From positions 64,001-128,000 of the IMG/VR virus record IMGVR_UViG_3300034782_000062: a stretch of 64,000 nucleotides of DNA, one strand, 5' to 3'. The position numbers were made by a program, and so were the translations under genes. Numbering within the stretch: position 1 is the first letter of the stretch; the number at the start of each line of letters is the position of its first letter. This document shows, in pieces, positions 4,079 to 27,807 of this stretch. The notes under the pieces were generated by a model, which worked only from the letters and a program-made list of their open reading frames with translations, was not told the DNA's origin and made no database searches. The stretch is from a virus.

Positions 4079-4136
4079 GACCGCGCAAGCGTCTTCATTC
4101 TACAACGCATCGATCGTCCCCAGGACGGTCGATCCT

Positions 4137-5261: not shown

Positions 5262-5326
5262 CTCGGTTCCGAAACATCGTTACCAACCCGAAACCGGCTC
5301 AATCGTCCCCAGGACGGTCGAGCCGC

Positions 5327-5394
5327 GCACGGCAAAGCAAGGATCGAACGTCCCCAGGACGGTCGAGCGGGTTCGACTCCCGCGCCGTGCCCCA
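5327..5394 (+). ncRNA. tRNA-like element 2 (D-stem-less, tmRNA-TLD-like fold), ends C-CCA
   Basis: Perfect acceptor GCACGGC/GCCGTGC; linker AAAGCAAGGA; helix TCGAACGTCC-CCA-GGACGGTCGA; perfect T-arm GCGGG-TTCGACT-CCCGC; encoded CCA. Confidence 0.8.
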
Positions 5395-5425
5395 AATCAT
5401 CCCCAGGACGAAGCGAACGGGACGC

Positions 5426-5465
5426 AAAAAGCGCGAGGCTGGCTCGACCGGCCCGCGCTTTTTTT
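5426..5465 (+). terminator. Intrinsic terminator, possibly bidirectional
   Basis: AAAAA-GCGCG(A)GGCTGG-CTCGA-CCGGCC-CGCGC-TTTTTTT. Confidence 0.75.
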
Positions 5466-5638
5466 GCCGCTTCACTGAGCATTTCGAGGCGCGGTCTGCG
5501 CCTCACTAGCCTTTTTTTGCGATTCACTAACCATTTCGTTTCTCGGTGGCCCGATTGGGCTCCTCGGCTTGGGACCGTCCCTCCCTCACGGTTGGGGGGT
5601 CCAATCGAGTCACTGAGCAGCGAGAGAGGAGGGACAAC

Positions 5639-6322
5639 ATGATCGAGGTAAAGTGCCCGAAGTGCCGCGAGCGGCTAGCAGGTTATTTGGTGCCATTTGA
5701 AAAGGCATTAGCTTGCCGCTACTGGAACAAGGAAGAGAACGAGGGGGCTGTCATCCTCGCCAAAGGGACGACGATCAAGCTCGTCAAGCCCTGGCGACAG
5801 CAGAAGCGCGATGTGTTCGGCAAGAAGCAAAAGCGGGCTGCCCGCTGGCTCGCCAAGCACGACATCAGAATCGCCACTACGCACCACTACCGCAACGACT
5901 ACTGTGTCGCCGTCAACAACCACGACAACAACTCAGCCGATTCGGCGTGCCTCTGCGACATCCCCGAAGACGTTTACGAGCTTGGCGGACCCGGAGCCCA
6001 GGCTCACATCGACGAGGACCGCGTGCCGCTCCTCGAAATCCATCTGGAGGAGGAGAAAAAGGCCCGCGAGAAGGCTGAGGCTGAAGCCGAGGATCTGGCG
6101 ATCGCTCGTCGCATCGACAAGCAGCTCGCCCGCTTCGAGAAGCTCGGCATCAAGGCTCGCCGCTCGACTGGATTCCCCGGTATGCGTACCCGTTCGATCA
6201 GCATGGACCCCGACGAGATCGAGCGGGTCCTACTAACGCTGGAGCGCTACGTCGAGATGATGAACGAGAAGAAGGCGGCAGAGGCCGAGGGCGAGGCCGA
6301 AGCAGACACGACGACTCACTGA
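5639..6322 (+). CDS. Hypothetical protein with N-terminal CxxC
   Basis: SD AGGAGGGACAAC-ATG; 227-aa ORF. Confidence 0.8.
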   Translation: MIEVKCPKCRERLAGYLVPFEKALACRYWNKEENEGAVILAKGTTIKLVKPWRQQKRDVFGKKQKRAARWLAKHDIRIATTHHYRNDYCVAVNNHDNNSADSACLCDIPEDVYELGGPGAQAHIDEDRVPLLEIHLEEEKKAREKAEAEAEDLAIARRIDKQLARFEKLGIKARRSTGFPGMRTRSISMDPDEIERVLLTLERYVEMMNEKKAAEAEGEAEADTTTH

Positions 6323-6325
6323 GTA

Positions 6326-6391
6326 TTCCAGTTCGTTCCAGTGCCGTTCCAAAACTTTCCCGTCGGGGTGTGAAAGTCCCGACGGGAACCA
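6326..6391 (+). ncRNA. Four phased TTCC boxes followed by a minihelix-ACCA (6358-6391), copy A
   Basis: TTCC at 6326, 6336, 6347, 6357; 12-bp stem TCCCGTCGGGGT/GTCCCGACGGGA (2 G-U pairs); loop GTGAAA; then A-CCA. Confidence 0.7.
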
Positions 6392-6432
6392 ACAGAGCGT
6401 CCCCAGGATGGACGTAAAACAGGAGGGACAAC

Positions 6433-6798
6433 ATGTCTGAGCAAACCGAAGCACAGGGCAAGCCCATCGCCGCCACCTACGAGGGAATGCTCCAACTCGC
6501 CCTCGCTGGACGACGTGGGAGCTTAATGAAGGCTGCGCCGCTCCCCAAGCCCGAGGAGTGCACCGAAGAGGACATCCCTGTTCTTTGCAAGAACATCGAG
6601 TCACTGAACACTTTTATCGGCGAGCTGATCGACCTCGTCGGCGAGAAGGAGCGCAAGCTCAACCTCGCCTTGGAGGCCCACGCCATTCGCACCGAGGGGC
6701 TCGACGACATGCTCGAAACGCTCGACTCGATGCGCGCCCAGATCATCAGCGTGCGCGACGAGAGCGGCGAGCTACTCGAAGAGATGGACGCAGACTGA
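6433..6798 (+). CDS. Hypothetical coiled-coil protein
   Basis: SD AGGAGGG; heptad-like acidic C-terminal half. Confidence 0.8.
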   Translation: MSEQTEAQGKPIAATYEGMLQLALAGRRGSLMKAAPLPKPEECTEEDIPVLCKNIESLNTFIGELIDLVGEKERKLNLALEAHAIRTEGLDDMLETLDSMRAQIISVRDESGELLEEMDAD

Positions 6799-6816
6799 CC
6801 ATCCCCAGGACGAATA

Positions 6817-6883
6817 TTCCAATCTGTTCCGGCGACATTCCAAACCATTCCCGGCAGGGTGTGAGAAGCCCTGGCGGGGACCA
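6817..6883 (+). ncRNA. Four phased TTCC boxes followed by a minihelix-ACCA (6849-6883), copy B
   Basis: TTCC at 6817, 6827, 6838, 6848 (same 10/11/10 spacing as copy A); 12-position stem with one G-G mismatch; loop GTGAGAA; then A-CCA. Confidence 0.7.
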
Positions 6884-6925
6884 CTAAACAACATGCGTCC
6901 CCAGGACGCAGAGAGGAGGGACACC

Positions 6926-7171
6926 ATGAGATGTATGTGCGGAGGCTGCCACGACTGCCTGGCAGCACAAGGCGGATACGACATTCCCGAGGAGTGCCCA
7001 GTATGCGGAAAGCCCAACGCTGACGAGGATGGCGAGCCTGTGTATCCCCAGGACTCGGCATTCTGCTCGGAGCACTGCGCCAACGAGTACGCCGCTGACC
7101 AGCGCTTCCACGACCACAACCTCTACCTCGATTATGTCGAGACTGAGCGGCTCATCGAGGAGACGTCATGA
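6926..7171 (+). CDS. Small Cys-rich, probably Zn-binding hypothetical protein
   Basis: CxC-CxxC, CPVC and CSEHC motifs; SD AGGAGGG. Confidence 0.75.
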   Translation: MRCMCGGCHDCLAAQGGYDIPEECPVCGKPNADEDGEPVYPQDSAFCSEHCANEYAADQRFHDHNLYLDYVETERLIEETS

Positions 7172-7581
7172 CTATCAAAGGACTAATCGACGACATCAAA
7201 GAGGCGAAGGAGTGCGTGCATGATGTCGGAGCGACTCCAGTTGCCGACATCATCACGACTTGCGATCAGGCCGACATGTGTCTTCAGGACGCTCTGATCA
7301 GACTCGAATCCCTGGACGGTGTGCCAACACGGCGGTTTGATGACTGGCTTCTCATCATCAACGAATCATACTCAGACTACGACGTCGAGGATCACGCAGC
7401 GTTCACACTGGCACAGTTCCTCGACGTTCTCATTAACCACTTCTCCATCCCACCGCCCTCGGAACAACCCGACTCTCCTCCCTACTACGAATGCCCATCG
7501 TGCGAGTTTCGCGATCGCGCACAGCCCGCTCGGTGTCCGTGCTGCGGTACTCCAGGTGATTCATTCGAGTTCGAGGAGTGA
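7168..7581 (+). CDS. Hypothetical protein with C-terminal Zn ribbon
   Basis: CPSC...CPCCG; ATGA overlap with the upstream stop. Confidence 0.75.
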   Translation: MTIKGLIDDIKEAKECVHDVGATPVADIITTCDQADMCLQDALIRLESLDGVPTRRFDDWLLIINESYSDYDVEDHAAFTLAQFLDVLINHFSIPPPSEQPDSPPYYECPSCEFRDRAQPARCPCCGTPGDSFEFEE

Positions 7582-7589
7582 GTGACTTT

Positions 7590-7627
7590 CTCTCGCCGCT
7601 GGCCTTGGAGCTGGCAGCGAGGGACCA
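7590..7627 (+). ncRNA. Hairpin ending A-CCA (38 nt)
   Basis: CTCTCGC.GCTGGC paired with GCTGGC.GCGAGGG (13 of 14 positions), then ACCA; followed by the palindrome and an SD. Confidence 0.55.
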
Positions 7628-7658
7628 GCGGCGTCCCCAGGACGCGAGGAGGGATAAA

Positions 7659-8036
7659 ATGCTTTTTCCAAGAAGACGACGAGTCGTGACGGACATCAAG
7701 TCCGTCTCTCTGGAGGCTGGCGCCAAGCAACTCGCTCGCAAGCTCACCGAGATGACGTGGTGCGGCTGTAATGGGTTTCGTCTTGGGGATTATCTCTTCC
7801 TCAATGACTCGACGAGCCCGGACGGAGCCCAGGAGTACGCTGTCGTTCACGAGCCGAGCATGCTTCAGTGCGAGAGCATCACGTTTAGTTGGTGCAGCCG
7901 CGCCAAAGCACTCGAATACATCCTCAAGACGATTCGCGGCGAGTTCAAGCCGTGGCGCGAGCCCACCCTGCCCAAGCCTGGCCAGCTCATCATCCAGACC
8001 CAGGACGAACACGGGACCTGCGTTCACTGCGCATAG
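7659..8036 (+). CDS. Hypothetical phage protein
   Basis: SD AGGAGGG before ATG 7659, preferred over GTG 7578. Confidence 0.75.
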   Translation: MLFPRRRRVVTDIKSVSLEAGAKQLARKLTEMTWCGCNGFRLGDYLFLNDSTSPDGAQEYAVVHEPSMLQCESITFSWCSRAKALEYILKTIRGEFKPWREPTLPKPGQLIIQTQDEHGTCVHCA

Positions 8037-8045
8037 GAGGCTCAA

Positions 8046-8363
8046 GTGAGACAAGCAAAACGAAACCTCATGGGCAGGCAAGAATGCGCGACCTGTGAGC
8101 AGGTCATCGAACCCCGTCAAGGCGAGGAATACCACGGCGCCTGCAAATGCTCCACTTGGCACTACTACGAAGAGGGCGGCTGGTATCATCTGGAATTTAT
8201 GGCGCACGTTTCGCGCCTTCGCGAGCGAGCCGAAAGCCATATCAGCCGCAGGACCACCACCGTTTTCGATGTTTGCTCAGAGCACGGGCAGATGCTCGAC
8301 AACGTCCAACACATGGAATGGCTCGTCCTCGCCGTCATGGACGAGCTGGAAGAGTGGAGATAA
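8046..8363 (+). CDS. Hypothetical protein (Cys motifs)
   Basis: SD AGGAGG, GTG start. Confidence 0.7.
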   Translation: MRQAKRNLMGRQECATCEQVIEPRQGEEYHGACKCSTWHYYEEGGWYHLEFMAHVSRLRERAESHISRRTTTVFDVCSEHGQMLDNVQHMEWLVLAVMDELEEWR

Positions 8364-8392
8364 TCGTCCCCAGGACGAAGAAAGGAGATGAT

Positions 8393-8647
8393 ATGCCCCA
8401 AACCGAGCCGGTCGAAGCCGATTCTGTATGGACACAGTTCGGCGAAGCGATCGGAGCTTTCGTCAATCACCCGGACTACTACAAGGGTCGCTGGTTCGTT
8501 CAGTGGCGCGGCGGTCGTCGGGTCTGCTCGAATCACACCACCGCTTCCGCATGGTGCAAGTACCTGCGCCGCAACTTCAACGACGGCTGGACCGCAACCA
8601 TCGGTCGGGCCGACCCTCTGCCGGGATTCCCTCGGCGGCTCCATTAA
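8393..8647 (+). CDS. Hypothetical protein
   Basis: Palindrome plus SD AAGGAG immediately upstream of ATG 8393. Confidence 0.7.
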   Translation: MPQTEPVEADSVWTQFGEAIGAFVNHPDYYKGRWFVQWRGGRRVCSNHTTASAWCKYLRRNFNDGWTATIGRADPLPGFPRRLH

Positions 8648-8660
8648 CCTTTAACACCTT

Positions 8661-8696
8661 CTCTGTTGCAGCAGCTTTCGCGTGCAACAGGGACCA
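8661..8696 (+). ncRNA. Class II hairpin-ACCA (cap GCAGCTTTCGCG)
   Basis: 10-bp stem CTCTGTTGCA/TGCAACAGGG, then A-CCA. Confidence 0.65.
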
Positions 8697-8759
8697 GTTT
8701 TTTTGTCAGAAGTCAGCAACTATGTTCGTCCTGTACAATGGACGAAGAAAGGAGCAGCC

Positions 8760-9233
8760 ATGCTTGCAGCATTGGTCGCAGAAGAAATCAAGCGTATGGA
8801 GCACGAGGACCAGTGCCCATGCCTCCCTTGCTCGATCAACTCGCTCCTACGTGACGTCGGTCGCTGGAAGCACATGCACGGGGAGTGCGACTGCCCGGTC
8901 TGTGAGCGCGGAATCGAGGCGATCACCAAGCACGGTAACGAGCTTGAGCGCATGAAGGCCGAGTACGAAAAGCGTCTTGAAGACGCAGACACAGACGACA
9001 TCGTCATCATCACACCTGAGCGGCACGCGCAGGCCGAAGAAGCTCGAAAGCTCATCCCCGTCATGGAAGCACAGATGGCGATGCTCGTCGCCACAATCGC
9101 TGAGCTTCTCGAAGACTTCCACCTCACTCTGAGAGCAGCCCACGCGGCTTTCGACGCCATCGCTGGCGAGCGGCAAGAGCCCGAGGCTGTTGTCGTTCGA
9201 CTTCAGCCTCGCCACGACTTCAGCATCAACTAG
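8760..9233 (+). CDS. Hypothetical protein, Cys/His-rich N-terminus and coiled coil
   Basis: SD GAAAGGAGCAGCC-ATG. Confidence 0.75.
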   Translation: MLAALVAEEIKRMEHEDQCPCLPCSINSLLRDVGRWKHMHGECDCPVCERGIEAITKHGNELERMKAEYEKRLEDADTDDIVIITPERHAQAEEARKLIPVMEAQMAMLVATIAELLEDFHLTLRAAHAAFDAIAGERQEPEAVVVRLQPRHDFSIN

Positions 9234-9256
9234 CTACCAATAGACAAACAAAAAAT

Positions 9257-9293
9257 CCTCAAGACGGTTAGCTTTCGCGCCGCTTGAGGACCA
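9257..9293 (+). ncRNA. Class II hairpin-ACCA (cap TTAGCTTTCGCG)
   Basis: CCTCAAG(A)CGG/CCGCTTGAGG, then A-CCA. Confidence 0.6.
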
Positions 9294-9509
9294 TGGTTCT
9301 CGACGCTGGAGGCGTCGGTATGCCGAGTTATCACGAATGAAGGCCAGGGTGGTAACGCCCCCATGTCACAGACGGGAGAAAGGCATGAAAAGGCCGACCG
9401 AGAAGGGAAGGCGTGGATGAAAGCCATCGAACCGGTGTAGATGGTGAGTAAGGTACGGCTTCGAGAATCATGTTTTTAGCGTCTACAGGACGCAGAGAGG
9501 AGGGATACC

Positions 9510-9938
9510 ATGAAGAAACGACAGTATGAAATGTATGTTGGGTTTGGAGTGCCCGGCGGACACTGGAACACCAAGTTCATCGAAGCCTCAACGCCCGAGG
9601 AGGCAGAAGAGAAGCTGCTCGAAAGACTGGACCGCGAAGGTGTTGAGCACGTCTCGTTTGTCGGCGTCTACCATGAGGGCGACATCATCGAGGACGGCGA
9701 AGACGATGAAGACGAGGACTGGAGCGCCTACTGCGACTACGAACTGAGCGACAACCAAAAGCAGTTCGTTCGGGACGCCGAGGAGCAGGGGCTCGAAATC
9801 AATTGGGACTATTCCGGTCGAGGCATGTTCGGAAAGTGCTGCCCCGCCGTCATGGTCGATGGGCTCGGCGAGTTTCACACGACAGCAAACTACGAGTCCG
9901 ATAGCATGGGGCTCGGGTTCGTCATCTACGCCCGGTAA
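9510..9938 (+). CDS. Hypothetical acidic phage protein
   Basis: SD AGGAGGG. Confidence 0.8.
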   Translation: MKKRQYEMYVGFGVPGGHWNTKFIEASTPEEAEEKLLERLDREGVEHVSFVGVYHEGDIIEDGEDDEDEDWSAYCDYELSDNQKQFVRDAEEQGLEINWDYSGRGMFGKCCPAVMVDGLGEFHTTANYESDSMGLGFVIYAR

Positions 9939-9970
9939 TAATTCATCCCCAGGACTGAGTAATACGTTTT

Positions 9971-10005
9971 CTCTCGTTGGTCAGCTTTCGCGCAGCGAGG
10001 GACCA
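9971..10005 (+). ncRNA. Class II hairpin-ACCA (cap GTCAGCTTTCGCG)
   Basis: 9-bp stem CTCTCGTTG/CAGCGAGGG, then A-CCA. Confidence 0.65.
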
Positions 10006-10047
10006 TCGCGTCGCAGAATCTTTCGCGTCGCAGAGAGGAGGGATACC

Positions 10048-10743
10048 ATGTCTGATATGAAGTGCCCCAAGTGCGGGTACGACGGCGGTTGGTTCAGCAT
10101 TGAAGCGACATCCGTATTCCAAGTCGCCCCTGACGGCACTGACGATTATGGCGACGTCGAGTGGAACGATAACTCATCGTGCCAGTGCTCCGAGTGCTAT
10201 CACGAGGGAACGGTTATCGAGTTCACGCCAGTTCTTCCGCGAGTCAAAGAGAAGCTAATCGAACTGGCTGGCTACGTTGACTCGGCTGACATCCAGCTCA
10301 TCGACGCGATCCGGGGCATCGCCGACCACTGCGAATACAAAACCGAGAATCAGGTTTTCGATGAGCTGCTAAAACTCGGTCACGAGATCGTGGACGCCGA
10401 GTCGTTCGACGAACTGACGGTACTCGATCTGTTCATGTGCGCCCACTGGCTCACCCGATGCCAGTATCACGAGATCATTCTCTGCTACGACGATCGGAGC
10501 TGGGACAACGTCTATGTCCGCGCACCGTCCGCCGAGCAAGCGCGCCTCGTCGCCTACGACGAGAATTCTGCTCCCTACGCTTTCCATGTTCAAGAAATCC
10601 CCGAGACTGAGCTTTCCGACTACGCGATCGACATCGGAGAGCAGCCCTTCGACTGGAAAGAGGACCAAACTCAGCGTGCATTCGAGGAGGCCGGGAAGCT
10701 CGCTGACAGCGCCGTGGCAGATGCGCATCAGGAGGACGACTGA
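10048..10743 (+). CDS. Hypothetical protein with N-terminal Zn ribbon
   Basis: CPKC...CQCSEC; SD AGGAGGG. Confidence 0.75.
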   Translation: MSDMKCPKCGYDGGWFSIEATSVFQVAPDGTDDYGDVEWNDNSSCQCSECYHEGTVIEFTPVLPRVKEKLIELAGYVDSADIQLIDAIRGIADHCEYKTENQVFDELLKLGHEIVDAESFDELTVLDLFMCAHWLTRCQYHEIILCYDDRSWDNVYVRAPSAEQARLVAYDENSAPYAFHVQEIPETELSDYAIDIGEQPFDWKEDQTQRAFEEAGKLADSAVADAHQEDD

Positions 10744-10934
10744 TGGCAACACAGGACAGATGGAACAAGTGGGGCCAGCATTGGCTTGCCACGCTGGAGG
10801 AGATGGAAGAGAACGCCGAGTCACCCGACGAGGAGCTGACCACCTTCGAGCGCAACCTCAAAGAGCAGTTGCAAACTATGGTCGTCCGTCCCCAGGACGA
10901 GGAAGGAAAGGACCATGACACCGACCGAGATTGA
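10743..10934 (+). CDS. Small hypothetical protein
   Basis: TGATG coupling to the upstream gene; overlaps the next gene by 20 nt. Confidence 0.55.
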   Translation: MATQDRWNKWGQHWLATLEEMEENAESPDEELTTFERNLKEQLQTMVVRPQDEEGKDHDTDRD

Positions 10935-11229
10935 AATGCTCAAGCTCCACGACAAGTTCCTCGCATTTATTAAGCGAGGCAGAATCAAGTGGGAAATGCT
11001 GCCCATTAAGGACCACCCAGAGGCGATGGGCTACACCGGCACCTACGGACGATCTCCTCTCTGGCGTTTCGTTGTCGCTTCATTCGACATCGAGAACCAG
11101 GGCTTCCCCCCCGGATCCAAGGGCTATGATGGCACCGCGACCGATCTTAGCAGCGGGCGCGTCATCCATTTGCCCCGCGAGACCGCTACCGCTCTCGGCC
11201 AGGACGCTGAAAAGGCGTTTATTCAGTAA
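10915..11229 (+). CDS. Hypothetical protein
   Basis: Palindrome plus purine-rich RBS upstream. Confidence 0.7.
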   Translation: MTPTEIEMLKLHDKFLAFIKRGRIKWEMLPIKDHPEAMGYTGTYGRSPLWRFVVASFDIENQGFPPGSKGYDGTATDLSSGRVIHLPRETATALGQDAEKAFIQ

Positions 11230-11259
11230 AAATCCCCAGGACGAAGAAAGGAGCTGACA

Positions 11260-11598
11260 TTGCGCGTCTGGTATCCAATCCCCCCGCTCTGCCTCGACGG
11301 CCCGAGGCTCACGGGCGTTCACAACGAGATTCACGCCATTAACAACATCATCCTCGACCCCGAGAAGGGCTATCAACATCACCCCGAGGTCAACCGCTGG
11401 CGCGGCTTCCTACCCGCGCTCGCTGCCTATCACGACCTCGTCGTCCAAGAATCCTGGCGACGAGGCTGGAAGATGGGCACCAACCACAAGACACCACTCT
11501 TTCACGACGGCCCGGTCGTGTGGCCCGAATTCATCGAGCCGATCGAGGTCATGCGTGCCAAGCTCGCAGCAAAGTGGGCCGCAAAACTCGCCGCGTAA
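11260..11598 (+). CDS. Pyrimidine-dimer DNA glycosylase / endonuclease V (DenV-like) family protein
   Basis: MRVW..PP..L....L...HNEIH...KGY.HHPE..RWRG...L..YH...V.E...RG...H.TPL pattern; TTG start after AAGGAG. Confidence 0.7.
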   Translation: MRVWYPIPPLCLDGPRLTGVHNEIHAINNIILDPEKGYQHHPEVNRWRGFLPALAAYHDLVVQESWRRGWKMGTNHKTPLFHDGPVVWPEFIEPIEVMRAKLAAKWAAKLAA

Positions 11599-11618
11599 TC
11601 CCCAAGACGAACATACAT

Positions 11619-11655
11619 CCTCGGCGTGGTCAGCTTCCGCGCACGCCGAGGACCG
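11619..11655 (+). ncRNA. Class II hairpin-ACCG (cap GTCAGCTTCCGCG)
   Basis: Perfect 10-bp stem CCTCGGCGTG/CACGCCGAGG, then A-CCG. Confidence 0.6.
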
Positions 11656-11664
11656 AGGTACGAA

Positions 11665-11958
11665 ATGAAAGAACGTTTTTTAATCGTGACGGACGGTGGC
11701 GGCGAGGACTTTTACTATCACCTCGTCAAGCCGAGCATCTGGGAAGAGTACGGACGGGAGTGCAAAAGGACGAAGCACTACTCTCGTGGCTCGGTCATGT
11801 CTGCGGTTAATGACCGGCTCTTTCCTAACGGTGATGTCTACGAGGCGATCATAGAGAATGAAAGCCCCGACGAAGACTTCGCCTTTTTCACAAACGCCTT
11901 CGAGGTTTTTCGGTTCTGCGAGGAGCATGGGCTGAAGATTGTCGGTGGCATCGGATAA
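11665..11958 (+). CDS. Hypothetical protein
   Basis: SD GAGGT before ATG 11665. Confidence 0.7.
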   Translation: MKERFLIVTDGGGEDFYYHLVKPSIWEEYGRECKRTKHYSRGSVMSAVNDRLFPNGDVYEAIIENESPDEDFAFFTNAFEVFRFCEEHGLKIVGGIG

Positions 11959-11990
11959 AATCCGTCCCAAGGACGGGGAAAGGAGCAGCC

Positions 11991-12803
11991 ATGACTGTTT
12001 TTTACTGGACCGTCATCTACTCGCACCGGCACGGGACCGACGCCTGGCCGGTGTTCGCTCATCAGTGCAAAGACCCTGAACGCGGCCCGACCGAGGAAGA
12101 GGTCATCGCCATCATTGGCGAGGATCTTTACGAGCCAGACAGCGAGGACGAATGGATCGAAATCGGCGGTCGCCAGACGATCGAGCTTCCCGATCACAAC
12201 GAGCTTCACTTCTGGCGCAAGACAGCCGCCGAGCTTTACGGGCTCGCCAGCGAGAGCACCATCGAGGAGCACCTGAGCGAGTTGCAGCAGCGACGATGCA
12301 CTGCAGCCCTCAACGATGAAGTCGCCGAGGGTATTGAGGACGAACCGACACCCGTGCCGACTCACTCCTTGCCACCCACCGAGACTTGGTACACCTGGCG
12401 CATCCTGGCGACGGTTGAGGGAGAAACAACCCGAAGACTCCTTGTTCCATGGTCTGACCCTCACAAGCACGAGTTCGCCTTCGATTTTATCTACAAGACG
12501 CCCGAAGAAGCCCGCGAGGGCCTGAAGACAATGGGCGCAGAAGACGACGCCGAAGAAGAGGGCTGGATTCTCTGCAAGAAGACCCTGATCCCCATCGAGC
12601 GCCTTCAGGGTGAGCCAACCCCTCGACCTCTCCCACAGACGATGCCTTCGTCCGAAGACATTTACCGAGAGCGAGCCCGAGAGTTTTTCCGACACGAGCT
12701 GGATGAGAACGACTGGGACATCGACGACGAACCCCAGGTCTCAGAGAGCAACGACGGAGCTTACGTCTCCATCTGGCGTTGGTTCCCAGCCGAAGACGAG
12801 TAA
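11991..12803 (+). CDS. Hypothetical acidic protein, probably multi-module
   Basis: SD GAAAGGAGCAGCC-ATG. Confidence 0.75.
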   Translation: MTVFYWTVIYSHRHGTDAWPVFAHQCKDPERGPTEEEVIAIIGEDLYEPDSEDEWIEIGGRQTIELPDHNELHFWRKTAAELYGLASESTIEEHLSELQQRRCTAALNDEVAEGIEDEPTPVPTHSLPPTETWYTWRILATVEGETTRRLLVPWSDPHKHEFAFDFIYKTPEEAREGLKTMGAEDDAEEEGWILCKKTLIPIERLQGEPTPRPLPQTMPSSEDIYRERAREFFRHELDENDWDIDDEPQVSESNDGAYVSIWRWFPAEDE

Positions 12804-12822
12804 CCTGTCATCCCACCATCAT

Positions 12823-12857
12823 CTCTGTCCCCGGCTGATACCCGAGGACAGGGACCA
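12823..12857 (+). ncRNA. 35-nt minihelix-ACCA (class I)
   Basis: CTCTGTCCCCGG/CCGAGGACAGGG (11 of 12 paired); 7-nt loop CTGATAC; then A-CCA. Confidence 0.65.
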
Positions 12858-12890
12858 AAATTTCGTCCCCAGGACGAGTAAGGAGGGACC

Positions 12891-13091
12891 ATGAAAGCGC
12901 GTTGCCCGAACGACACGAACCACAGAAGGTTCATCACCGTGACGCATGTCACCGAGGACTGGGTTGTCGATGAGAACGGCGAGTACGTGGAATCTGCCGA
13001 CTCTGGTGTCGGCGAAGTTGTCCACGGCCCCGACCCCGACAACACCTGGACCTGTAACGAGTGCGGTGCCGAGGCAGTCGTCACTGACTAG
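12891..13091 (+). CDS. Small Zn-ribbon hypothetical protein
   Basis: CP...H and C..CG motifs; SD AGGAGGG. Confidence 0.75.
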   Translation: MKARCPNDTNHRRFITVTHVTEDWVVDENGEYVESADSGVGEVVHGPDPDNTWTCNECGAEAVVTD

Positions 13092-13103
13092 AAAGGAGCA
13101 GCT

Positions 13104-13580
13104 ATGCCCAAGTTCACTGTACGAGTCCATGAGACACACCTGGCCGACTACGTGGTCGAGGCCGAAAATCCACAGGACGCCATCGAATCCGTCAGGAACG
13201 GTAACGGCGAGCTTGCCGACGACTCGGTGGAGTTTCTGCATCTTGCTGACGAGGCGAACTGGGCAGTTTTCGAGGGAGACCAGTACGACCTCGAAGGCCC
13301 GGAACTATCGAACGATGCTGTCTGGTCAGCAGCGCACGCTTGCGAACAGCTTGAGGAAGAAATCCTGAAGATGCTCGGTGCAAAGCGCGGAACTTCCGAG
13401 GTGGAGCAAGAGCTGGTCGAGCACATGGACGAGCTTGTTCACGACGTCGCCTCCAAGGAGGGAAGCGACGTCAACAACGGTGGCCTCTCCGAGCAGCTCG
13501 AATGGCTCTGGAACGAGCTTGGTGCCGAGCACGCTCGAACGACCATCATTGAGCACGTCAAGCAGTTGAGGGCGCCATGA
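13104..13580 (+). CDS. Hypothetical acidic protein
   Basis: SD GAAAGGAG. Confidence 0.75.
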   Translation: MPKFTVRVHETHLADYVVEAENPQDAIESVRNGNGELADDSVEFLHLADEANWAVFEGDQYDLEGPELSNDAVWSAAHACEQLEEEILKMLGAKRGTSEVEQELVEHMDELVHDVASKEGSDVNNGGLSEQLEWLWNELGAEHARTTIIEHVKQLRAP

Positions 13581-14164
13581 GCTACTGCGAATGGTGCGGA
13601 AACAAACCCACCGCCGAGAAGGGCTCGTGCCCCGACTGCTTCCATCTACTCGATGGACCACTCCTCCCGGCCAAGGATGCCTTTGATCTCATCAACGACC
13701 GATGGGGAACCTGCTGCAAGGGAATCATCCTGACGATGATAACTCACATCCGGTCCCCGAACACGGCTGGCATCCCCGAGGGCGCGGACATCGACCTTTC
13801 CGACGCCGAGGTCGAAGAGCGAATCGACCGATCGCATCTGTTCATCCATCCCAAGCATGACGCTGGTGTTTCCAACAATGGCACCATGGGAGTCGAGTGC
13901 GGCATCAACCTCTACTGCGGCTTCGCTCGCTGCTACTGGATATTCGACGGCGGCGACAACACCGAGTCATTCGAGTACGGACCCGAAATCCCCTACTCGA
14001 TCGGCGAGAAACGTTTTTTCGAGGCCGTGGAAACCATCCTCGATGCAGCAGCGGACGAAGCCGAGGGCCTCGGCTACGCGCAGTGCTCCATGTGCGGCGA
14101 TCACTACCTCGCCGATGCTGGTCTCTACTGCGAGTGCCAGGTCCAACGCTCGATCGAGCCGTAA
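13577..14164 (+). CDS. Hypothetical protein with Cys clusters at both termini
   Basis: CxxC...CxxC at the N-terminus and CxxC...CxC at the C-terminus; ATGA overlap. Confidence 0.75.
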   Translation: MSYCEWCGNKPTAEKGSCPDCFHLLDGPLLPAKDAFDLINDRWGTCCKGIILTMITHIRSPNTAGIPEGADIDLSDAEVEERIDRSHLFIHPKHDAGVSNNGTMGVECGINLYCGFARCYWIFDGGDNTESFEYGPEIPYSIGEKRFFEAVETILDAAADEAEGLGYAQCSMCGDHYLADAGLYCECQVQRSIEP

Positions 14165-14177
14165 GGAGGAGGGAGCC

Positions 14178-14423
14178 ATGAAACTCAAACACTGCGTCCT
14201 GGCGATGGACACATCTGGCGACGAAATCGGCTGCATCCCGATGCCTCACGACACCGTTTTTCTCGCCGTCACCGCATGGACGACCAAGTACGAGCTGGCG
14301 CTTCTCACCAGCGGCTCTCACACCGCTCTTCTCCAGCGCTACCACGACAGCGGCGAGAAGTTCATCTGGGAGGGCCGCGAAGTCGGCGGCTTCGAGGTCG
14401 TCAGCGAGCCCATCATCGAATGA
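14178..14423 (+). CDS. Small hypothetical protein
   Basis: SD AGGAGGAGGG. Confidence 0.7.
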   Translation: MKLKHCVLAMDTSGDEIGCIPMPHDTVFLAVTAWTTKYELALLTSGSHTALLQRYHDSGEKFIWEGREVGGFEVVSEPIIE

Positions 14424-14432
14424 ATAAATCCT

Positions 14433-14467
14433 GCCCTGCGATGTGTGAAAAGCATCTCAGGGCACCA
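14433..14467 (+). ncRNA. 35-nt minihelix-ACCA (class I)
   Basis: GCCCTGCGATGT/GCATCTCAGGGC (11 of 12 paired); 7-nt loop GTGAAAA; then A-CCA; 7 nt before the SD. Confidence 0.65.
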
Positions 14468-14485
14468 TAAGGGAAAGGAGGTGAG

Positions 14486-14782
14486 ATGGCGGAACGCCGA
14501 TCAAGGCGAAGAAAAAAGAAGACTGCCGCAGACTTAAGAAGGCACGCGATTGTCTCGGCTTCAGTCCGCTACGGCATCGACCTCGACGACGAAGGGAGGG
14601 AAGAAATCCTGGAGATGATCAGGGCAGGAACAAGAAACAAAGACTGCGCCTGCATCGAACGCCAGAGCAGAAAGCGAACCCTCTGGCGTATTCGCTTTCG
14701 CAACCAAGTCTGCGGAGTGGTCTACGACTCGGACTTTCACGAGCTGGTCACGTTCATTCCGAAAGACGACCCACGGCTGTAA
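14486..14782 (+). CDS. Basic hypothetical phage protein
   Basis: SD AAGGAGGTG. Confidence 0.75.
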   Translation: MAERRSRRRKKKTAADLRRHAIVSASVRYGIDLDDEGREEILEMIRAGTRNKDCACIERQSRKRTLWRIRFRNQVCGVVYDSDFHELVTFIPKDDPRL

Positions 14783-14897
14783 CAACAGCCACAACATCAA
14801 CCGACTTCACAGAATCACGAAGTCAAAGTCGACGTTGGTTACACCTAACGTCTACGTGCTGCCGCGAAGCGCGAGCAGTACGAAAGGAGGCAGATCC

Positions 14898-15953
14898 ATG
14901 GGAGGTCAAGCGTTCAAGGGTCCAAGGCTCAACGGCTTCTTCCTCGACCCCGACGAGATCGTTCTGGTCGGAGGCAACGGCCCAAACGACGTCCCCAAGA
15001 CGGCTGAACTTGCACACCTGTACGACAAGCGCGTCCACGACAAGCCTGACGAGGGCATGGTCCGCAACATGATGGTCTACGGCGTCATCGAGGCCGTGAA
15101 GGTCCAGAAGATCGTCAGCGACGACGGAGAGAACCGCGCCTACGTCATCGACGGCCGTGGTCGAGTCATCGCAGCTCGCGAGGCGAACGTGCGTCTCCGC
15201 AGGGAGGGCAAGGAGCCGATCCTGGTTCCGATCGTCCTCAAGACCGGTGACCCGTCCAAGCTCTTCGGCATCCTCATCTCGGCGAACGAGAACCGTCGAG
15301 ACGACACCCCCATCGCCAAGGCTGAGAAGATCGCTCAGTTCATGGATATGGGGCGCGACGAGGAGGCGGCGGCGAACGCCTACGGTATCACCGTCGCCAA
15401 CGTGCGGCAGCTCCTCAAGCTGCTGGACCTCGCCCCGAAGGTGCAGACCATGATCAAGAAGGGCACCCTCTCGGCGTCGGCTGCCACTCAGCTCGTCAAG
15501 CTCCCACATGCGGAGCAGGTCACGAAGGCCGAGGAGGTCATCGCGAGCGGCGTCAAGCCGACGGCTCGGAATATCAGCCGCTCTACCGGAAACCGCCCGG
15601 TCACTCCATCGAAGCGCGTCGTGCAGAAGCTCGTCGCCCTCGACAAGAAGCCCGAAATCGCGGAGAAGTACGACTCCTTCTGGGGCGCCCTCCAGTTCAT
15701 GCTGGGCCAGGTAACCCTGGAGGACGTCGGCCTCGCCGAGGTCGTCGCGGAGCTGAAGGCCAAGAAGAAGAAGGCCAAGAAGGGCAACGCGAAGGGCTCG
15801 AAGAAGGGCAACTCCAAGCAGCAAACGTTGCCGCTCGACGAGAAGGGCAAGAAGTCCCCGGCCAAGACCACCTCCAAGACCAAGACCCCGCCGAAGAAGG
15901 GTCCGACCATCGCGAAGAAGAAGGGATCCGCGAAGAAGGACGCCGCCGCCTAG
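14898..15953 (+). CDS. ParB/Spo0J-like protein (ParB-N + HTH + Lys-rich tail)
   Basis: YVIDGRGRVIAA (GxxRxxA CTP-binding motif), ISANENRRD, AAANAYGITVANVRQLL helix-turn-helix; histone-H1-like K/A/P tail. Confidence 0.8.
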   Translation: MGGQAFKGPRLNGFFLDPDEIVLVGGNGPNDVPKTAELAHLYDKRVHDKPDEGMVRNMMVYGVIEAVKVQKIVSDDGENRAYVIDGRGRVIAAREANVRLRREGKEPILVPIVLKTGDPSKLFGILISANENRRDDTPIAKAEKIAQFMDMGRDEEAAANAYGITVANVRQLLKLLDLAPKVQTMIKKGTLSASAATQLVKLPHAEQVTKAEEVIASGVKPTARNISRSTGNRPVTPSKRVVQKLVALDKKPEIAEKYDSFWGALQFMLGQVTLEDVGLAEVVAELKAKKKKAKKGNAKGSKKGNSKQQTLPLDEKGKKSPAKTTSKTKTPPKKGPTIAKKKGSAKKDAAA

Positions 15954-15994
15954 TCCGTTCTGGACGACATCACCATCTTCAAGACGAAAGACAG

Positions 15995-16057
15995 ACCAGG
16001 GTTTTCCAGATCATCTGGAGGACGGTGACCGGGGTTCGACTCCCCGGCCTGGTCCCA
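15995..16057 (+). ncRNA. tRNA-like element 3, ends C-CCA overlapping the SD of the next gene
   Basis: T-arm CGGGG-TTCGACT-CCCCG; acceptor ACCAGG(G)/(G)CCTGGT with 6 of 7 pairs; internal hairpin TTTCCAGA-TCA-TCTGGAGG. Confidence 0.55.
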
Positions 16058-16068
16058 AGGAGGTCTCA

Positions 16069-16389
16069 ATGTCATCAGATGACAAAGTTCCAATACCGAA
16101 ACTTTCTGTACATCAGTGGGCAGCTCTCCTCCGCATGAAGGACTGGAACTGGGCATTCCCAAAGAATGGACACAGAGCCAACGGCCTACTACGGACGATT
16201 CGGAGTTTGCAACGCCTCGGTCTCGCAGCGTGGCTTGAACCGGGTGATACCAACCACTACGGATCGACGGTAGACGGCTATGGCTGGGACCTGACACCAG
16301 AAGGATACGCTCTTGCTCGTCAAGAGCACAGGCGCGAGCACGAGAACCCCAAGGTGCGCCGGGTGCTCTACCGGCTACGCCTCCCATAG
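16069..16389 (+). CDS. Hypothetical protein, possible winged helix
   Basis: LRTIRSLQRLGL...WDLTPEG pattern; SD AAGGAGG. Confidence 0.65.
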   Translation: MSSDDKVPIPKLSVHQWAALLRMKDWNWAFPKNGHRANGLLRTIRSLQRLGLAAWLEPGDTNHYGSTVDGYGWDLTPEGYALARQEHRREHENPKVRRVLYRLRLP

Positions 16390-16427
16390 GCATATAACTT
16401 CGTCCCCAGGACGAGAAAGGAGCAGCC

Positions 16428-16880
16428 ATGTTCGTCATGAAGTGTGACGTCTGCGGCAGAACAATCGAGATCGACCGGGACAACCCCGGCGACTCGATCA
16501 GAGAGCAAGTCAAGGGCGACTGGAGACAAGTCGAAGACTTCGACGGCAACACCTTCGACATCTGCCACGAGTGCAACAAGAAAGGCCACGTTCCCGCAAT
16601 CCTCAAGATGGAGGAGAACGGCTACTGGGAGCGGACCAGCACTCACTCACTCCTTTTCCACAGCCACGACAGTGTTCCCTCTCCCACTCTCTTCGGCGTC
16701 AACGTTCACGTCGTCGCGATCGAGGTGAAAAAGCGCGACCACCGCCGCGCCATAAACCAAGAGTCCCAGGACGAGTTGAACTGTGTCATTAGAGGCACCG
16801 GCTCCGAAGAGAGCGAGCTGCTGACAACAGAAATCGATGGGAAGCCGCACATCGTCTGGGTGGCGCCCCATGAAGTCTAA
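16428..16880 (+). CDS. Hypothetical protein with Zn ribbon
   Basis: CDVC...CHEC; palindrome plus SD upstream. Confidence 0.75.
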   Translation: MFVMKCDVCGRTIEIDRDNPGDSIREQVKGDWRQVEDFDGNTFDICHECNKKGHVPAILKMEENGYWERTSTHSLLFHSHDSVPSPTLFGVNVHVVAIEVKKRDHRRAINQESQDELNCVIRGTGSEESELLTTEIDGKPHIVWVAPHEV

Positions 16881-17484
16881 CATCCCAGCACCGCACGGAT
16901 ACGCCTTCGTGCTCAACAGCAACACCAGAAAGGGATCGCGCTTTCACCTGGCCGACGCGAGCGGTCGTCCCAAGTGCGGAACCAAGGTAGACGTCAGCGC
17001 CTTGGAGCGCGAATGGGAGATACCCGTCAGCTACGACCCCTGCAAAAGGTGTTTCCCGAAAGGAATCAATCCAATGAACGACGCCAATCATATGACTCCA
17101 GAAGAGTTCGACCGGGTCATGCTTCTCTCGTCCAACGGCGAGATTGAGTGTGATGGCATCGTCATCATCCCAACGGACAGGGTCGATCAGTCGGGCTACC
17201 GAATCATGGATTTTGTCGTCACCGTGACGCCGGATCGCAAGCCTGTGGGCCGCATCAGCGAACTCGGCATGAACGCGCACGACGTCTTCGAGCTGACCGA
17301 CATGCGCGGCACTCGGACTCGGTCCATCGGCGACGAGCCGGTACGGCTCCCCGAGTGGAAGTGCGACTGCCTTCAGCGCAGCGGCTTCCTCTATATCACT
17401 CCATCCTGGGGACGGATCAGGGTCAGCCACGACACGGCGACGGTCCACATCCGTCTCATCAGCAACGACGAGGCCCAGAAATGA
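16870..17484 (+). CDS. Hypothetical protein
   Basis: Overlap-coupled ORF containing H...CG...C.RC. Confidence 0.65.
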   Translation: MKSNIPAPHGYAFVLNSNTRKGSRFHLADASGRPKCGTKVDVSALEREWEIPVSYDPCKRCFPKGINPMNDANHMTPEEFDRVMLLSSNGEIECDGIVIIPTDRVDQSGYRIMDFVVTVTPDRKPVGRISELGMNAHDVFELTDMRGTRTRSIGDEPVRLPEWKCDCLQRSGFLYITPSWGRIRVSHDTATVHIRLISNDEAQK

Positions 17485-18311
17485 ACGAGCGCTGCCAGTT
17501 CTGCATCGACCCGAAGTGCGAGGGGCGAAGAGATTGCGATTGCGAGAGCTGCGACAAGCGCGACTGCTGCTACCGCACTCTTCGCCCCACCATTCGGTTA
17601 ACTCTCAAATGCACCCAGAAATGTGGCCACTGCTGCTGGTCCTCATCACCCCAGCAGGATAAGCACATGCCCCCAGAGGTCGCAGAGCTGGTTCACCAGT
17701 TCCTCGACGCAAACCCCATCCACTCGGCGAACATCATGGGCGGCGAGTTCTGGCTCAACCCGGACTGGGAAGAAGTCCTGGGGATGATCGTTGAGGGGCT
17801 CGACTACGCTCGCCTAGTCACAAACGGCGACTGGGCCGCGGACGAACAGTCCTCAAGACAAGTCCTCGAATTCATGGAGTCCCACGAGCACTGCTTCCTC
17901 GCCATCACCACCGACAAGTGGCACACAAACAAACATGTGGTCACGGCAGAAGAGTTCTGCAAGGAGCACAACCTGCTTCACAAGGTCGGAGGCGACGAGA
18001 GCGACATGGGGATCGTTCCGGTCGGGCGCTCTGCGTTCGACATGAGCCTCTTCGGGATGATGGCTTGCTACTGCCACAACCCTGTTAACAAGTATACGTT
18101 CTTAATAGACGAGGACGGCGTCATCTATAAGTGCGCCTTCGGCACCTGGGACTACGATCGCGTCCACAACTTTGTCTCAGGTGGCTTCCCCGAGCGCTTC
18201 AAAGAGTTCAACGAAAAGTTCTACGGGATGTTCGTCGGGAGCTGCTCCCAGTGTCGCCGAGCCTACGCCTTCGGCACCAAAAGGAGCCGCGTTCAAGAGA
18301 TGGTCGGGTAG
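17481..18311 (+). CDS. Radical SAM protein with SPASM/twitch-like C-terminus
   Basis: CTQKCGHC (CxxxCxxC), IMGGE, TNG, C-terminal CYC...IDEDG.IYKC...CSQC. Confidence 0.85.
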   Translation: MNERCQFCIDPKCEGRRDCDCESCDKRDCCYRTLRPTIRLTLKCTQKCGHCCWSSSPQQDKHMPPEVAELVHQFLDANPIHSANIMGGEFWLNPDWEEVLGMIVEGLDYARLVTNGDWAADEQSSRQVLEFMESHEHCFLAITTDKWHTNKHVVTAEEFCKEHNLLHKVGGDESDMGIVPVGRSAFDMSLFGMMACYCHNPVNKYTFLIDEDGVIYKCAFGTWDYDRVHNFVSGGFPERFKEFNEKFYGMFVGSCSQCRRAYAFGTKRSRVQEMVG

Positions 18312-18362
18312 CACAGGCGTTCATCCCCAGGACGCCCGTGGGATCGTGACCACCACTAATAA

Positions 18363-18397
18363 GTCCTGGTCACTCTGAGAAAGTGGCCAGGGCTCCA
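18363..18397 (+). ncRNA. 35-nt minihelix-TCCA (class I) directly upstream of the cas12m SD
   Basis: 12-bp stem GTCCTGGTCACT/AGTGGCCAGGGC (2 G-U pairs); 7-nt loop CTGAGAA; then T-CCA running into AGGAGG. Confidence 0.7.
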
Positions 18398-18409
18398 AGG
18401 AGGCAACAA

Positions 18410-20146: not shown

Positions 20147-20209
20147 TCTCGGACCCGCTCGAAAAACGGCATATACTTCAACGAAAAGACAAGGCATTCT
20201 GACAGTGCC

Positions 20210-27699: not shown

Positions 27700-27807
27700 A
27701 TTCCACCAAAACCCTACGCTATGGGAGGCTTAGCTGCCTCTCATGGCGTCCATCACACATGCCCCTGTTGCATGTGTTACATTGCTATGATAGAAGGGAT
27801 GAGACCC

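Follow-up and report, generated by a model that had tools for sequence, protein, structure and literature searches.

Intercistronic hairpin-CCA elements form a covarying RNA family in the early region of a large phage and its relatives

The early region of phage genome IMGVR_UViG_3300034782_000062 (182,770 bp) contains five short hairpins that are non-random, confined to one strand and intergenic, each followed by a conserved single-stranded CCA. They do not constitute the separate 'Class I' proposed by the sequence-only reading, and represent instead a loop variant of a lineage-wide family of covarying RNAs, built to a strict grammar in which a stop codon is followed by hairpin, RCCAA, linker, palindrome and Shine-Dalgarno sequence. 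The family is absent from Rfam. We tentatively favour, at somewhat less than an even chance, a role for these hairpins as cis-acting intercistronic processing or end-protection elements of a long polycistronic early transcript, which would act through host tRNA-end enzymes. Coordinates refer to the window, the whole stretch of DNA analysed (64,000 nt; positions 64,001–128,000 of the record).

All five hairpins were found on the plus strand as described (34–35 nt, 12 stem positions, an NTGANA loop and NCCA), and all lie in gaps between plus-strand genes, upstream of GGAGG and ATG. Hairpin 1 (6357–6391), between genes 5639–6322 and 6433–6798, has 13 bp, the loop GUGAAA and then CCA; its core (6358–6387; TCCCGTCGGGGT / GTGAAA / GTCCCGACGGGA, then ACCA; 34 nt) is paired at 12 of 12 positions and folds at -22 kcal/mol (z -4.2). 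Hairpin 2 (6848–6883; loop GUGAGAA, then CCA) has 13 stem positions with one G-G mismatch, and 11 of 12 pairs in its core (6849–6879; GTGAGAA, then ACCA). It is a paralogue of hairpin 1 with similar stem and flanks, and the claim that stems share little sequence across the set was to that extent overstated. Hairpin 3 (12822–12857; loop CUGAUAC, then CCA) also has 11 of 12 core pairs (12823–12853; CTGATAC, then ACCA), as does hairpin 4 (14432–14467; loop GUGAAAA, then CCA; core 14433–14463, GTGAAAA, then ACCA; z -5.8), whose first nucleotide is 8 nt past the stop codon of gene 14178–14423. Hairpin 5 (18362–18397; loop CUGAGAA, then CCA) is fully paired (12 of 12; core 18363–18393, CTGAGAA, then TCCA), and its CCA directly abuts the AAGGAGG Shine-Dalgarno sequence of a Cas12m-like gene (18410–20146). 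Four of the five are 35 nt with a 7 nt loop and hairpin 1 is 34 nt with a 6 nt loop, on 12 (13) stem positions; the loop is closed by a U-G pair in three, with one G-C and one U-A in the others, and CCA is present in every case.

Chance does not account for this set. A pattern of at least 11 of 12 pairs, an NTGANA loop and NCCA matches five times on the plus strand of the whole genome and not once on the minus strand, and 100 dinucleotide-preserving shuffles gave a mean of 0.00 matches (maximum 0); without the CCA requirement there are five matches with 0.51 expected. None was antisense or within a coding sequence, where equal frequency would have counted against the original proposal. A covariance model built from the five and three orthologues recovers only these five at E≤1 on both strands of the genome, and no Rfam family covers them at E≤5 (positions 1–34000 searched). 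Folding energies are -18 to -22 kcal/mol (z-scores -3.0 to -5.8), and in four of the five the plus strand folds better than the minus strand.

We rejected intrinsic (Rho-independent) termination, as the hairpins are followed by CCAACAGA, CCACTAAA, CCAAAATT, CCATAAGG and CCAAGGAG with no direct U-tract, and a terminator scan detected none of the five. The sole U-tract terminator between 5000 and 19000 is a canonical hairpin followed by T7 at 5426–5463, which indicates that the host does use U-tracts. No sigma-70-like promoter was found on the plus strand of this interval, and hence none in the hairpin-bearing modules; with a single terminator and no promoter, the hairpins appear to lie inside one transcript.

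The class I helix is 13 bp with CCA directly after it, because the supposed discriminator, read previously as a free N of NCCA, is in every case paired with the nucleotide just 5′ of the stem. This pair covaries in all eight aligned sequences (the five and three orthologues), being U-A in six, A-U in one and U-G in one; G hardly ever occurs at -2, and the CCA itself therefore stays unpaired. Across the alignment 97% of cells pair and 11 of the 13 pairs change on both sides, compared with 37–52% pairing when the alignment is slid, and none of 500 shuffles reaches the observed values. One example is the orthologue of hairpin 1 (L009:2254–2286), in which three pair replacements keep all 13 pairs and the loop is GUCGAAA. 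In the orthologue of hairpin 3 (L014:249–281) a C-A mismatch becomes U-A and one C-G becomes U-G, and in that of hairpin 4 (L014:1832–1864) one U-A becomes C-G and a mismatch is repaired. Hairpin 2 is identical in four near-identical strains (L010–L013). In an 84%-identical relative the orthologues swap pairs but keep the helix and CCA, and the linkers differ. Among 42 strictly defined members of the wider family there are 74 G-U pairs and 10 A-C pairs, and the fold therefore acts in the plus-strand RNA; this bias, together with the compensatory changes, indicates selection on the RNA fold.

In its general form the family is a ~33 nt hairpin with a pyrimidine-rich 5′ base and 3′ GGG-R, then directly CCA(A) or CCG; it has 11 members in the window, and four distant relatives contain more than 40. 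All 42 strictly defined members are intergenic, 36 measure 32–34 nt, and 39 have a purine ahead of CC; the CC[AG] tail in 42 of 42 follows from the selection rule. Stable hairpins with CC[AG] next number 51 of 138 on the plus strand and 8 of 146 on the minus strand (Fisher p = 2e-11). Most members have a UUUC tetraloop on a 14–15 bp stem, giving the same total length as class I, and most share the apex GCUGC-UUUC-GCGGC; its conservation may point to a sequence-specific partner that has nothing to do with tRNA enzymes, an observation against the involvement of the latter. Other plus-strand members in the window are at 7589–7627 (TCTCTCGCCGCTGGC / CTTGGA / GCTGGCAGCGAGGGA, then CCA; not class I), 8660–8696 (apex GCAGCUUUCGCG, then CCA, then G and T7), 9256–9293 (TCCTCAAG...CTTGAGGA, then CCA; apex AGCUUUCGCG), 9970–10005 (TCTCTCGTTG...CAGCGAGGGA, then CCA; apex GUCAGCUUUCGCG) and 11618–11655 (TCCTCGGCGTG...CACGCCGAGGA, then CCG).

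Divergent phages share some conserved apical sequences: GCUUUCGCG is common to the window, L006, L007 and L008, and GUGU(N)GAAAGC to the window, L005, L008 and L009. Such conservation, the fixed element length and a Shine-Dalgarno sequence that is always near would suit a site for a sequence- and shape-specific RNA-binding protein of phage or host origin. By analogy with boxB/N, the MS2 coat operator or T4 RegA, such a protein would govern each early cistron through its translation, antitermination or timing. We regard this as improbable: a single genome has at least three apex types, the spacing to the Shine-Dalgarno sequence varies from 0 to ~50 nt, the sites are too numerous for a nut- or put-type antiterminator, and no candidate protein was found.

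The hairpins are part of a larger module with the order stop codon, hairpin, R-CCA(A), an A-rich and G-poor linker of 4–12 nt, a hairpin formed by a 13 bp palindrome, Shine-Dalgarno sequence and start codon. Most family hairpins begin 2–10 nt past a stop codon, with median distances of 9.5 nt past the stop and 37 nt ahead of the next start; the hairpin-to-ATG spacing of 38–45 nt is taken up by linker, palindrome and Shine-Dalgarno sequence. The early genes on either side of these modules are small and poorly conserved; the modules persist while gene content varies among relatives, and near-identical hairpin copies recur within genomes (L005 at 18739, 19275 and 19677; L006 at 15109 and 17978; hairpins 1 and 2 in the window). 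In these respects they resemble the PeSL cassettes of T4-type phages, repeated intergenic stem-loop modules that end in a Shine-Dalgarno sequence and start codon and are placed between small variable early genes (PMC2839356, PMC4122927). The entire module could thus be a cassette linker that mainly provides dispersed homology for recombination and so for early-gene shuffling, with the hairpin as an attenuator. However, PeSLs combine a strong sigma-70 early promoter with a terminating stem-loop of GGGG...CCCC polarity (PMC2839356, PMC4122927), whereas the module here has no promoter consensus, reversed polarity (YCCC...GGGR), a conserved CCA tail and no U-tract after its hairpins, even though the true terminator nearby has T7. 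Moreover, the G-U bias and compensatory changes are unexpected from DNA homology alone and gene order is fully conserved in the 84%-identical relative, leaving this explanation with only a slim chance.

The proposal that the hairpins correspond to the top half of a tRNA is partly supported. Their dimensions are indeed those of an acceptor-T minihelix, and the same operon provides its own standard of comparison in two D-armless tRNA-like elements on the plus strand. The first (4136–4203) has acceptor strands TCTCCGGC/GTCGGAGA, a T-arm GCGGG-UUCGACC-CCCGC and then CCG; one arm bears the 13 bp palindrome, and its base signature and tail are as in the hairpins (16.4 bits with the tRNA-Sec model, below threshold). 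The second (5327–5394; 19.4 bits) has acceptor GCACGGC/GCCGTGC, T-arm GCGGG-UUCGACU-CCCGC and then C-CCA, and is conserved in L009. Such elements come after the AAA-ATPase gene both in the window and in all relatives examined (L005–L009), with a canonical T-arm, the hairpins' YCCC/GGGR base and an RCC(A/G) tail. Acceptor (8), T-arm (17) and acceptor (8) sum to 33 nt, the length of 13 bp plus the 7 nt loop in class I. We note that these elements, with a true T-arm, hold places in the operon equivalent to those of the hairpins, which counts for transcript punctuation.

Other tRNA features are missing. The UGANA loops had been taken to fit the T-loop motif, but none is UUCRA, the GUCGAAA loop of the hairpin 1 orthologue indicates that UGANA is not conserved, and all 31 phage tRNAs have TTCRA loops. 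We rejected a T-loop of the UUCRANY type closed by G53-C61 (the loops being GUGAAA, GUGAGAA, CUGAUAC, GUGAAAA and CUGAGAA), and also a purine-rich 5′ acceptor strand of the G1-C72 type, since the polarity 5′-YCCC...GGGR-3′ is the reverse of the usual acceptor. The first base past the 5′ U (n=42) is C in 26, T in 8, G in 6 and A in 2, followed by CC; the +1/+72 pair is mostly C-G or U-A and not G-C. Both the non-T loops and the paired, covarying 'discriminator', unlike a tRNA 3′ end, stand against the involvement of tRNA enzymes. In the phage's own tRNA genes the encoded end is NCCA or NCC[GT], with T at -1 in most, which speaks for punctuation. No family hairpins were found within the phage's tRNA array and no CCA-adding enzyme gene was found, two observations against punctuation.

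The family nevertheless has the sequence features that RNase P requires, namely a helix of no fewer than 7 bp and a 3′ RCC, with U at -1 in 29 of 42 members. Bacterial RNase P cleaves hairpin models of the acceptor and T-arm, pairing with the 3′ RCCA and contacting U-1 (PMC11143913), and RNase E cuts 1–3 nt past an encoded CCA (PMC2190699). The phage hairpins share with the acceptor-stem/T-arm model substrates of McClain and Altman a continuous helix of ~12–13 bp, a 7 nt loop, a single-stranded 3′ R-CC-A and mostly a U 5′ of the helix (PMC11143913). They differ in being natural and mRNA-internal, in a loop that is not UUCRA, in a purine before CC that pairs with the 5′ U or C, in a +1 of C or U rather than G, and in the many members with 14–15 bp and a tetraloop.

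In the punctuation model that we favour, the family imitates the acceptor/T-arm half of a tRNA by its length, its 3′ RCCA tail and the usual U 5′ of the helix, and host tRNA-end enzymes would cut beside the hairpins. RNase P may cut at the foot of the helix on its 5′ side, and/or an endonuclease may act just 3′ of the CCA, with exonuclease trimming then halting there. The upstream cistron would be left with a protective 3′ hairpin-CCA, and the downstream cistron would begin near its own small 5′ hairpin. Proximity to the stop codon, however, makes such a hairpin a better candidate for a 3′-end protector than for an RNase P site, as cutting on its 5′ side would leave the upstream message unprotected. 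Cleavage, the enzymes responsible and any effect on stability are all inferred here. It is possible, though we think it unlikely, that the lineage runs a full tRNA-punctuation system, in which anticodon-less, T-arm-bearing tRNA mimics and their 33 nt hairpin-CCA derivatives would be interchangeable in recruiting RNase P and CCA-limited 3′ trimming to split the early transcript into protected messages.

A plainer explanation, which we consider doubtful, dispenses with tRNA enzymes: the cut, by RNase E, G, Y or III or a phage nuclease, would fall in the A-rich linker, and the hairpin would block 3′ exonucleases, with CCA merely part of a nuclease or exonuclease stop signal. The position just past stop codons, the A-rich, G-poor inter-hairpin linker, the loops unlike those of tRNA, and an outermost pair that covaries as in any helix all agree with this. 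It leaves unexplained the near-invariant R-CC-A/G, the fixed ~33 nt length, and the equivalent placement of T-arm-bearing elements with the same base and tail. The hairpins would then resemble the early RNase III sites of T7 or the intercistronic hairpins of T4, which likewise lie between early cistrons, divide a polycistronic RNA into segments and leave a hairpin that protects the 3′ end. RNase III sites have longer helices (~20 bp or more) that are irregular and interrupted by an internal loop, and none of these elements is known to have a conserved CCA tail or a fixed 33 nt size. Acceptor-stem/CCA mimics on early RNA might otherwise be decoys that soak up toxins attacking tRNA 3′ ends or acceptor stems, but we view this as very improbable; only the shape (a helix with single-stranded RCCA), high copy number and early expression fit, whereas the CCA is internal to the transcript unless processed, no link to a defence or counter-defence gene was found, and the strict post-stop placement is unaccounted for.

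The punctuation model has an organellar parallel in plant mitochondrial t-elements and mitochondrial tRNA punctuation, where tRNA-like folds or stem-loops lie between coding regions of polycistronic RNA and mRNA ends are proposed or shown to be set by tRNA-processing enzymes (PMC1920247). Those t-elements are mapped to real transcript ends (PMC1920247), whereas the phage hairpins are defined by sequence, and their commonest form is reduced to a bare hairpin and CCA. If correct, the model would provide a bacterial-virus counterpart of these systems and natural minimal substrates for RNase P or CCA-end enzymes; if tRNA-end enzymes cut or cap the hairpins, a signal of only ~36 nt would let large phages control the stoichiometry and lifetimes of dozens of early messages. 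Should the full tRNA-punctuation system hold, the stages of evolution from a tRNA-like element down to a bare minihelix would still be visible in this lineage. Under the plainer readings, too, this is a well-defined, covarying RNA family, and its strict grammar opens the question to direct testing with synthetic RNAs. The family could also help to annotate the limits of genes and the transcript units of uncultured large phages. A probable outlying member, also intergenic and on the plus strand, is at 27716–27752 (14 bp, 34 nt, then CCA).

The sequence-only reading had described five short hairpins with NTGANA loops followed by CCA (class I), and exactly those five, all on the + strand, were recovered both by a hairpin scan of the window and by a targeted scan that required 12 stem positions around an NTGANA loop. 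In the targeted scan, hairpins #1 (6358–6387) and #5 (18363–18393) have 12 of 12 pairs, and hairpins #2 (6849–6879), #3 (12823–12853) and #4 (14433–14463) have 11 of 12; NCCA follows each of them, as ACCA in four and TCCA in one. Frequency on the antisense strand had been proposed as a test, and across both strands of the 182,770-bp genome, of which the window is bases 64001–128000, the pattern occurs five times on the + strand and not once on the − strand. When the genome was shuffled 100 times with dinucleotides preserved, the mean number of matches was 0.00 with CCA required (0.51 without it), and a genome search at E≤1 with a covariance model of the five hairpins plus three orthologues retrieves nothing but the five. 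Folding energies range from −18 to −22 kcal/mol (z-scores −3.0 to −5.8), and for four of the five the + strand folds more strongly than the − strand. ARAGORN reported no tRNA genes in the window, an Rfam search over the hairpins gave no match, the family being absent from Rfam, and megablast of window positions 5000–20000 against deposited phages gave none either.

Class I had been taken as a class of its own, and is instead a variant, with 13 bp and a 6–7-nt purine-rich loop, within a larger family. Folding all intergenic gaps of the window identified further + strand members at 7589–7624, 8660–8693, 9256–9290, 9970–10002 and 11618–11652, and a probable one at 27716–27749, all with the same ends as class I: a 5′ T leading into a pyrimidine-rich stretch, and GGG-A on the 3′ side with CCA or CCG immediately after it. 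Relatives were found via homologues of the AAA ATPase and via two small proteins; searches from single proteins at 11991–12803 and 14898–15953 found none. The distant relatives L005–L008 (57–69% identity to the AAA ATPase of the window) share in most gaps of their early operons a module that runs from the stop codon through the hairpin, R-CCA(A), an A-rich linker of 4–12 nt, a 13-bp palindrome (CGTCC-NNN-GGACG) and the Shine-Dalgarno sequence GGAGGGAC to the start codon. Under a strict rule (11 or more pairs, no more than one mismatch, −14 kcal/mol or lower, 28–40 nt, and CC[AG] next) there are 42 members, every one of them intergenic, at a median of 9.5 nt from the stop codon and 37 nt from the next start. 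Thirty-six are 32–34 nt long, 39 have a purine before CC, 29 have U as their outermost 5′ base and 10 have C, and CC is followed by A in 31 and G in 7, with A at the next position in 32. CC[AG] follows 51 of the 138 stable + strand hairpins of these loci versus 8 of the 146 stable − strand ones (Fisher p = 2e-11), and iteration of the covariance model (R1 to R2) left the catch at 19 matches, all on the + strand. In most relatives the cap is GCUGC-UUUC-GCGGC on a 14–15-bp stem, and a sub-variant apex, GUGU(N)GAAAGC, is present at non-orthologous sites of L005, L008 and L009, the last from a relative 84% identical to this phage. The palindrome is seen as CGTCC-CCA-GGACG at 6398–6414, 6896–6910, 7631–7645, 12864–12876 and many more places, and as CGTCC-TGA-GGACG or CCGTCT-NNN-AGACGG in relatives; in most modules it lies 4–12 nt 3′ of the hairpin-CCA and 2–6 nt 5′ of the Shine-Dalgarno, and could form a small 5′ hairpin in the RNA.

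Judged by sequence comparison, the hairpin fold is under selection in the + strand RNA. The 84%-identical relative (Logan SRR8389946; loci L009 and L014) has orthologues of #1, #3 and #4. In that of #1, three pairs are swapped (U-A to C-G, G-C to C-G and G-U to C-G) and two more have become U-G, with 13 of 13 pairs kept; in that of #4, one U-A is replaced by C-G and the sole mismatch by A-U; and in that of #3, a C-A mismatch has become U-A and one C-G has become U-G. CCA is constant in all three and the linkers have diverged. An eight-sequence alignment has 97.1% of its cells paired, with both sides varying in 11 of 13 pairs; none of 500 shuffles reached this pairing, and sliding the partner by 1–3 columns reduced it to 37–52%. 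All 49 family members were also aligned with MAFFT; this alignment did not agree with the structure and did not enter the pair counts. The 42 family stems contain 74 G-U versus 10 A-C oppositions, a count that is somewhat biased because the search accepted G-U as a pair, and the family was not retrieved when the − strand was searched in the same way. A dedicated RNA-binding regulator acting at the hairpins seems to us improbable.

Over its first 33 kb the window carries a single block of + strand genes, among them those for an AAA ATPase, a helicase and a ParB-HTH protein along with many small ORFs, and each class-I hairpin lies between two of the + strand genes, 5′ of a GGAGG-type Shine-Dalgarno and ATG. 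Since no sigma-70-like promoter was found on the + strand in 5000–19000, and the sole + strand hairpin with a U-tract in that interval is at 5426–5463, the class-I hairpins are most simply internal to a single long early transcript. A promoter within the module is unlikely, as the 38–45 nt before the ATG are occupied by linker, palindrome and Shine-Dalgarno and a promoter consensus was not found. N4-type DNA-hairpin promoters, which have 5–7-bp stems, 3-nt loops and a few copies at one genome end, were rejected as differing in geometry and distribution. The hairpins are not intrinsic terminators, because they have no U-tract and genuine T7 terminators are close by; the member at 8660–8706 may double as one, since CCAG and then T7 follow it. 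The sites are too numerous for a nut/boxB or put antiterminator to be likely. A role of the loop UGA as in-frame stop of the upstream gene was also rejected, the triplet being in frame in #1 and #2 and out of frame in #3 and #4. Sequestration of the Shine-Dalgarno GGAGGGA, which a 3′ arm with GAGGGA resembles, is not a general rule, since about 40% of the family have 3′ arms unlike it (e.g. ...CCAGCGA, ...GTGTGGCA), and release from a roadblock at the downstream palindrome fails on geometry because the 3′ arm would still lie under the stalled polymerase.

The interval 5426–5536 contains a canonical terminator (GC hairpin and T7) and, 3′ of it, TTCACTNANCATTT in two exact copies (5471 and 5523), and the motif is also 3′ of T-run terminators in L005 and L006; the copies are plausibly, and likely, phage promoters feeding the hairpin-bearing operon. 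Directly 5′ of the first gene downstream of these putative promoters is a very long near-perfect hairpin of ~65–85 nt with GTCCCTCCC in its loop (5556–5626; L005:13549–13632; L009:1455–1540), which relatives keep and which is below −60 kcal/mol in L005.

The likeness to a tRNA acceptor-T minihelix put forward from the sequence stands in part. Length, tail and operon partners favor it: the class-I helix of 13 bp plus 7 nt gives 33 nt, the family tail R-CC-A/G is single-stranded with U mostly just 5′ of the helix, and true tRNA-like elements are present in the hairpin operon. Two D-armless elements lie on the + strand at 4136–4203 and 5327–5394, each with a 7–8-bp acceptor, a palindrome-bearing arm and a canonical T-arm (GCGGG-UUCGACY-CCCGC), then CCG or C-CCA; their tRNA-model scores are weak (16–19 bits, below threshold). 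Comparable elements (7–8-bp acceptor, an arm with the 13-bp palindrome or another hairpin, T-arm, RCC(A/G)) have a canonical T-arm at L006:11772–11845, L007:11849–11910, L008:6240–6302 and L009:55–125, and a degenerate T-loop (CGCGAUA/C) at L005:11714–11783 and L008:5056–5115. In every relative examined the element is 3′ of the AAA-ATPase gene, and the base of its acceptor is that phage's own hairpin signature (TCTC...GAGA in the window, CCCC...GGGG in L007, TTCCCGGC/GTCGGGAA-CCA in L006); the 5′ octamer of the L006 acceptor is identical to that of hairpin #2. Acceptor (8), T-arm (17) and acceptor (8) sum to 33 nt, the family length. Loop, discriminator and polarity do not agree with a tRNA top half: UUCRA is in none of the class-I loops and UGANA is lost in the #1 orthologue; the N of NCCA is paired in all eight sequences and covaries (U-A, A-U, U-G); and the 5′ strand is pyrimidine-rich, the opposite of a normal acceptor. 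Also counting against it are the conserved non-tRNA apex of most family members and two null results, no family hairpin among the phage tRNA genes and no phage gene for a CCA-adding enzyme (PF01743). That the hairpins are acceptor-stem decoys is barely credible. Beyond the window, an array of 31 tRNA genes and a tmRNA occupies 166145–182765 of the phage genome; these genes encode NCCA or NCC[GT] (about one-third CCA, about one-third NCC then G or T), mostly with T at −1.

Acceptor/T-arm hairpins are cleaved by bacterial RNase P, which makes use of R73-C74-C75 and U-1 (PMC11143913), and RNase E cuts 1–3 nt past an encoded CCA (PMC2190699). Our tentative preference, drawn from sequence, is that the module may be a cut-and-protect punctuation mark processed by candidate tRNA-end enzymes, such that the upstream cistron would retain the hairpin-CCA at its 3′ end and the downstream one would begin near a 5′ hairpin. 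The post-stop placement, fixed length, single-stranded RCCA(A), A-rich linker and small hairpin near the Shine-Dalgarno are consistent with a cut-and-protect mark. Ordinary RNases as the candidate enzymes of such punctuation are a rather unlikely alternative, and a PeSL-like recombination linker (PMC2839356) is very unlikely. The closest known concepts are RNase P hairpin model substrates, plant mitochondrial t-elements with mitochondrial tRNA punctuation (PMC1920247), PeSL cassettes, and the T7 and T4 intercistronic processing hairpins; a literature search for hairpin-CCA punctuation in phage messages found no report.

Three of the class-I hairpins have further neighbors. Three spaced TTCCA/GTTCC repeats (ATTCCA-N5-GTTCC-N6-8-TTCCAAA) are present only 5′ of #1 and #2, at 6326–6356 and 6815–6847, and are missing from the orthologous gap in L009. 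Hairpin #5 is directly 5′ of a transposase/TnpB-like (Cas12-like) gene of 578–587 aa (region 18410–20922), and that gene is followed by an array whose repeats form hairpins (GTCTCTAC-TCATAGGCY-GTAGAGA on the − strand).
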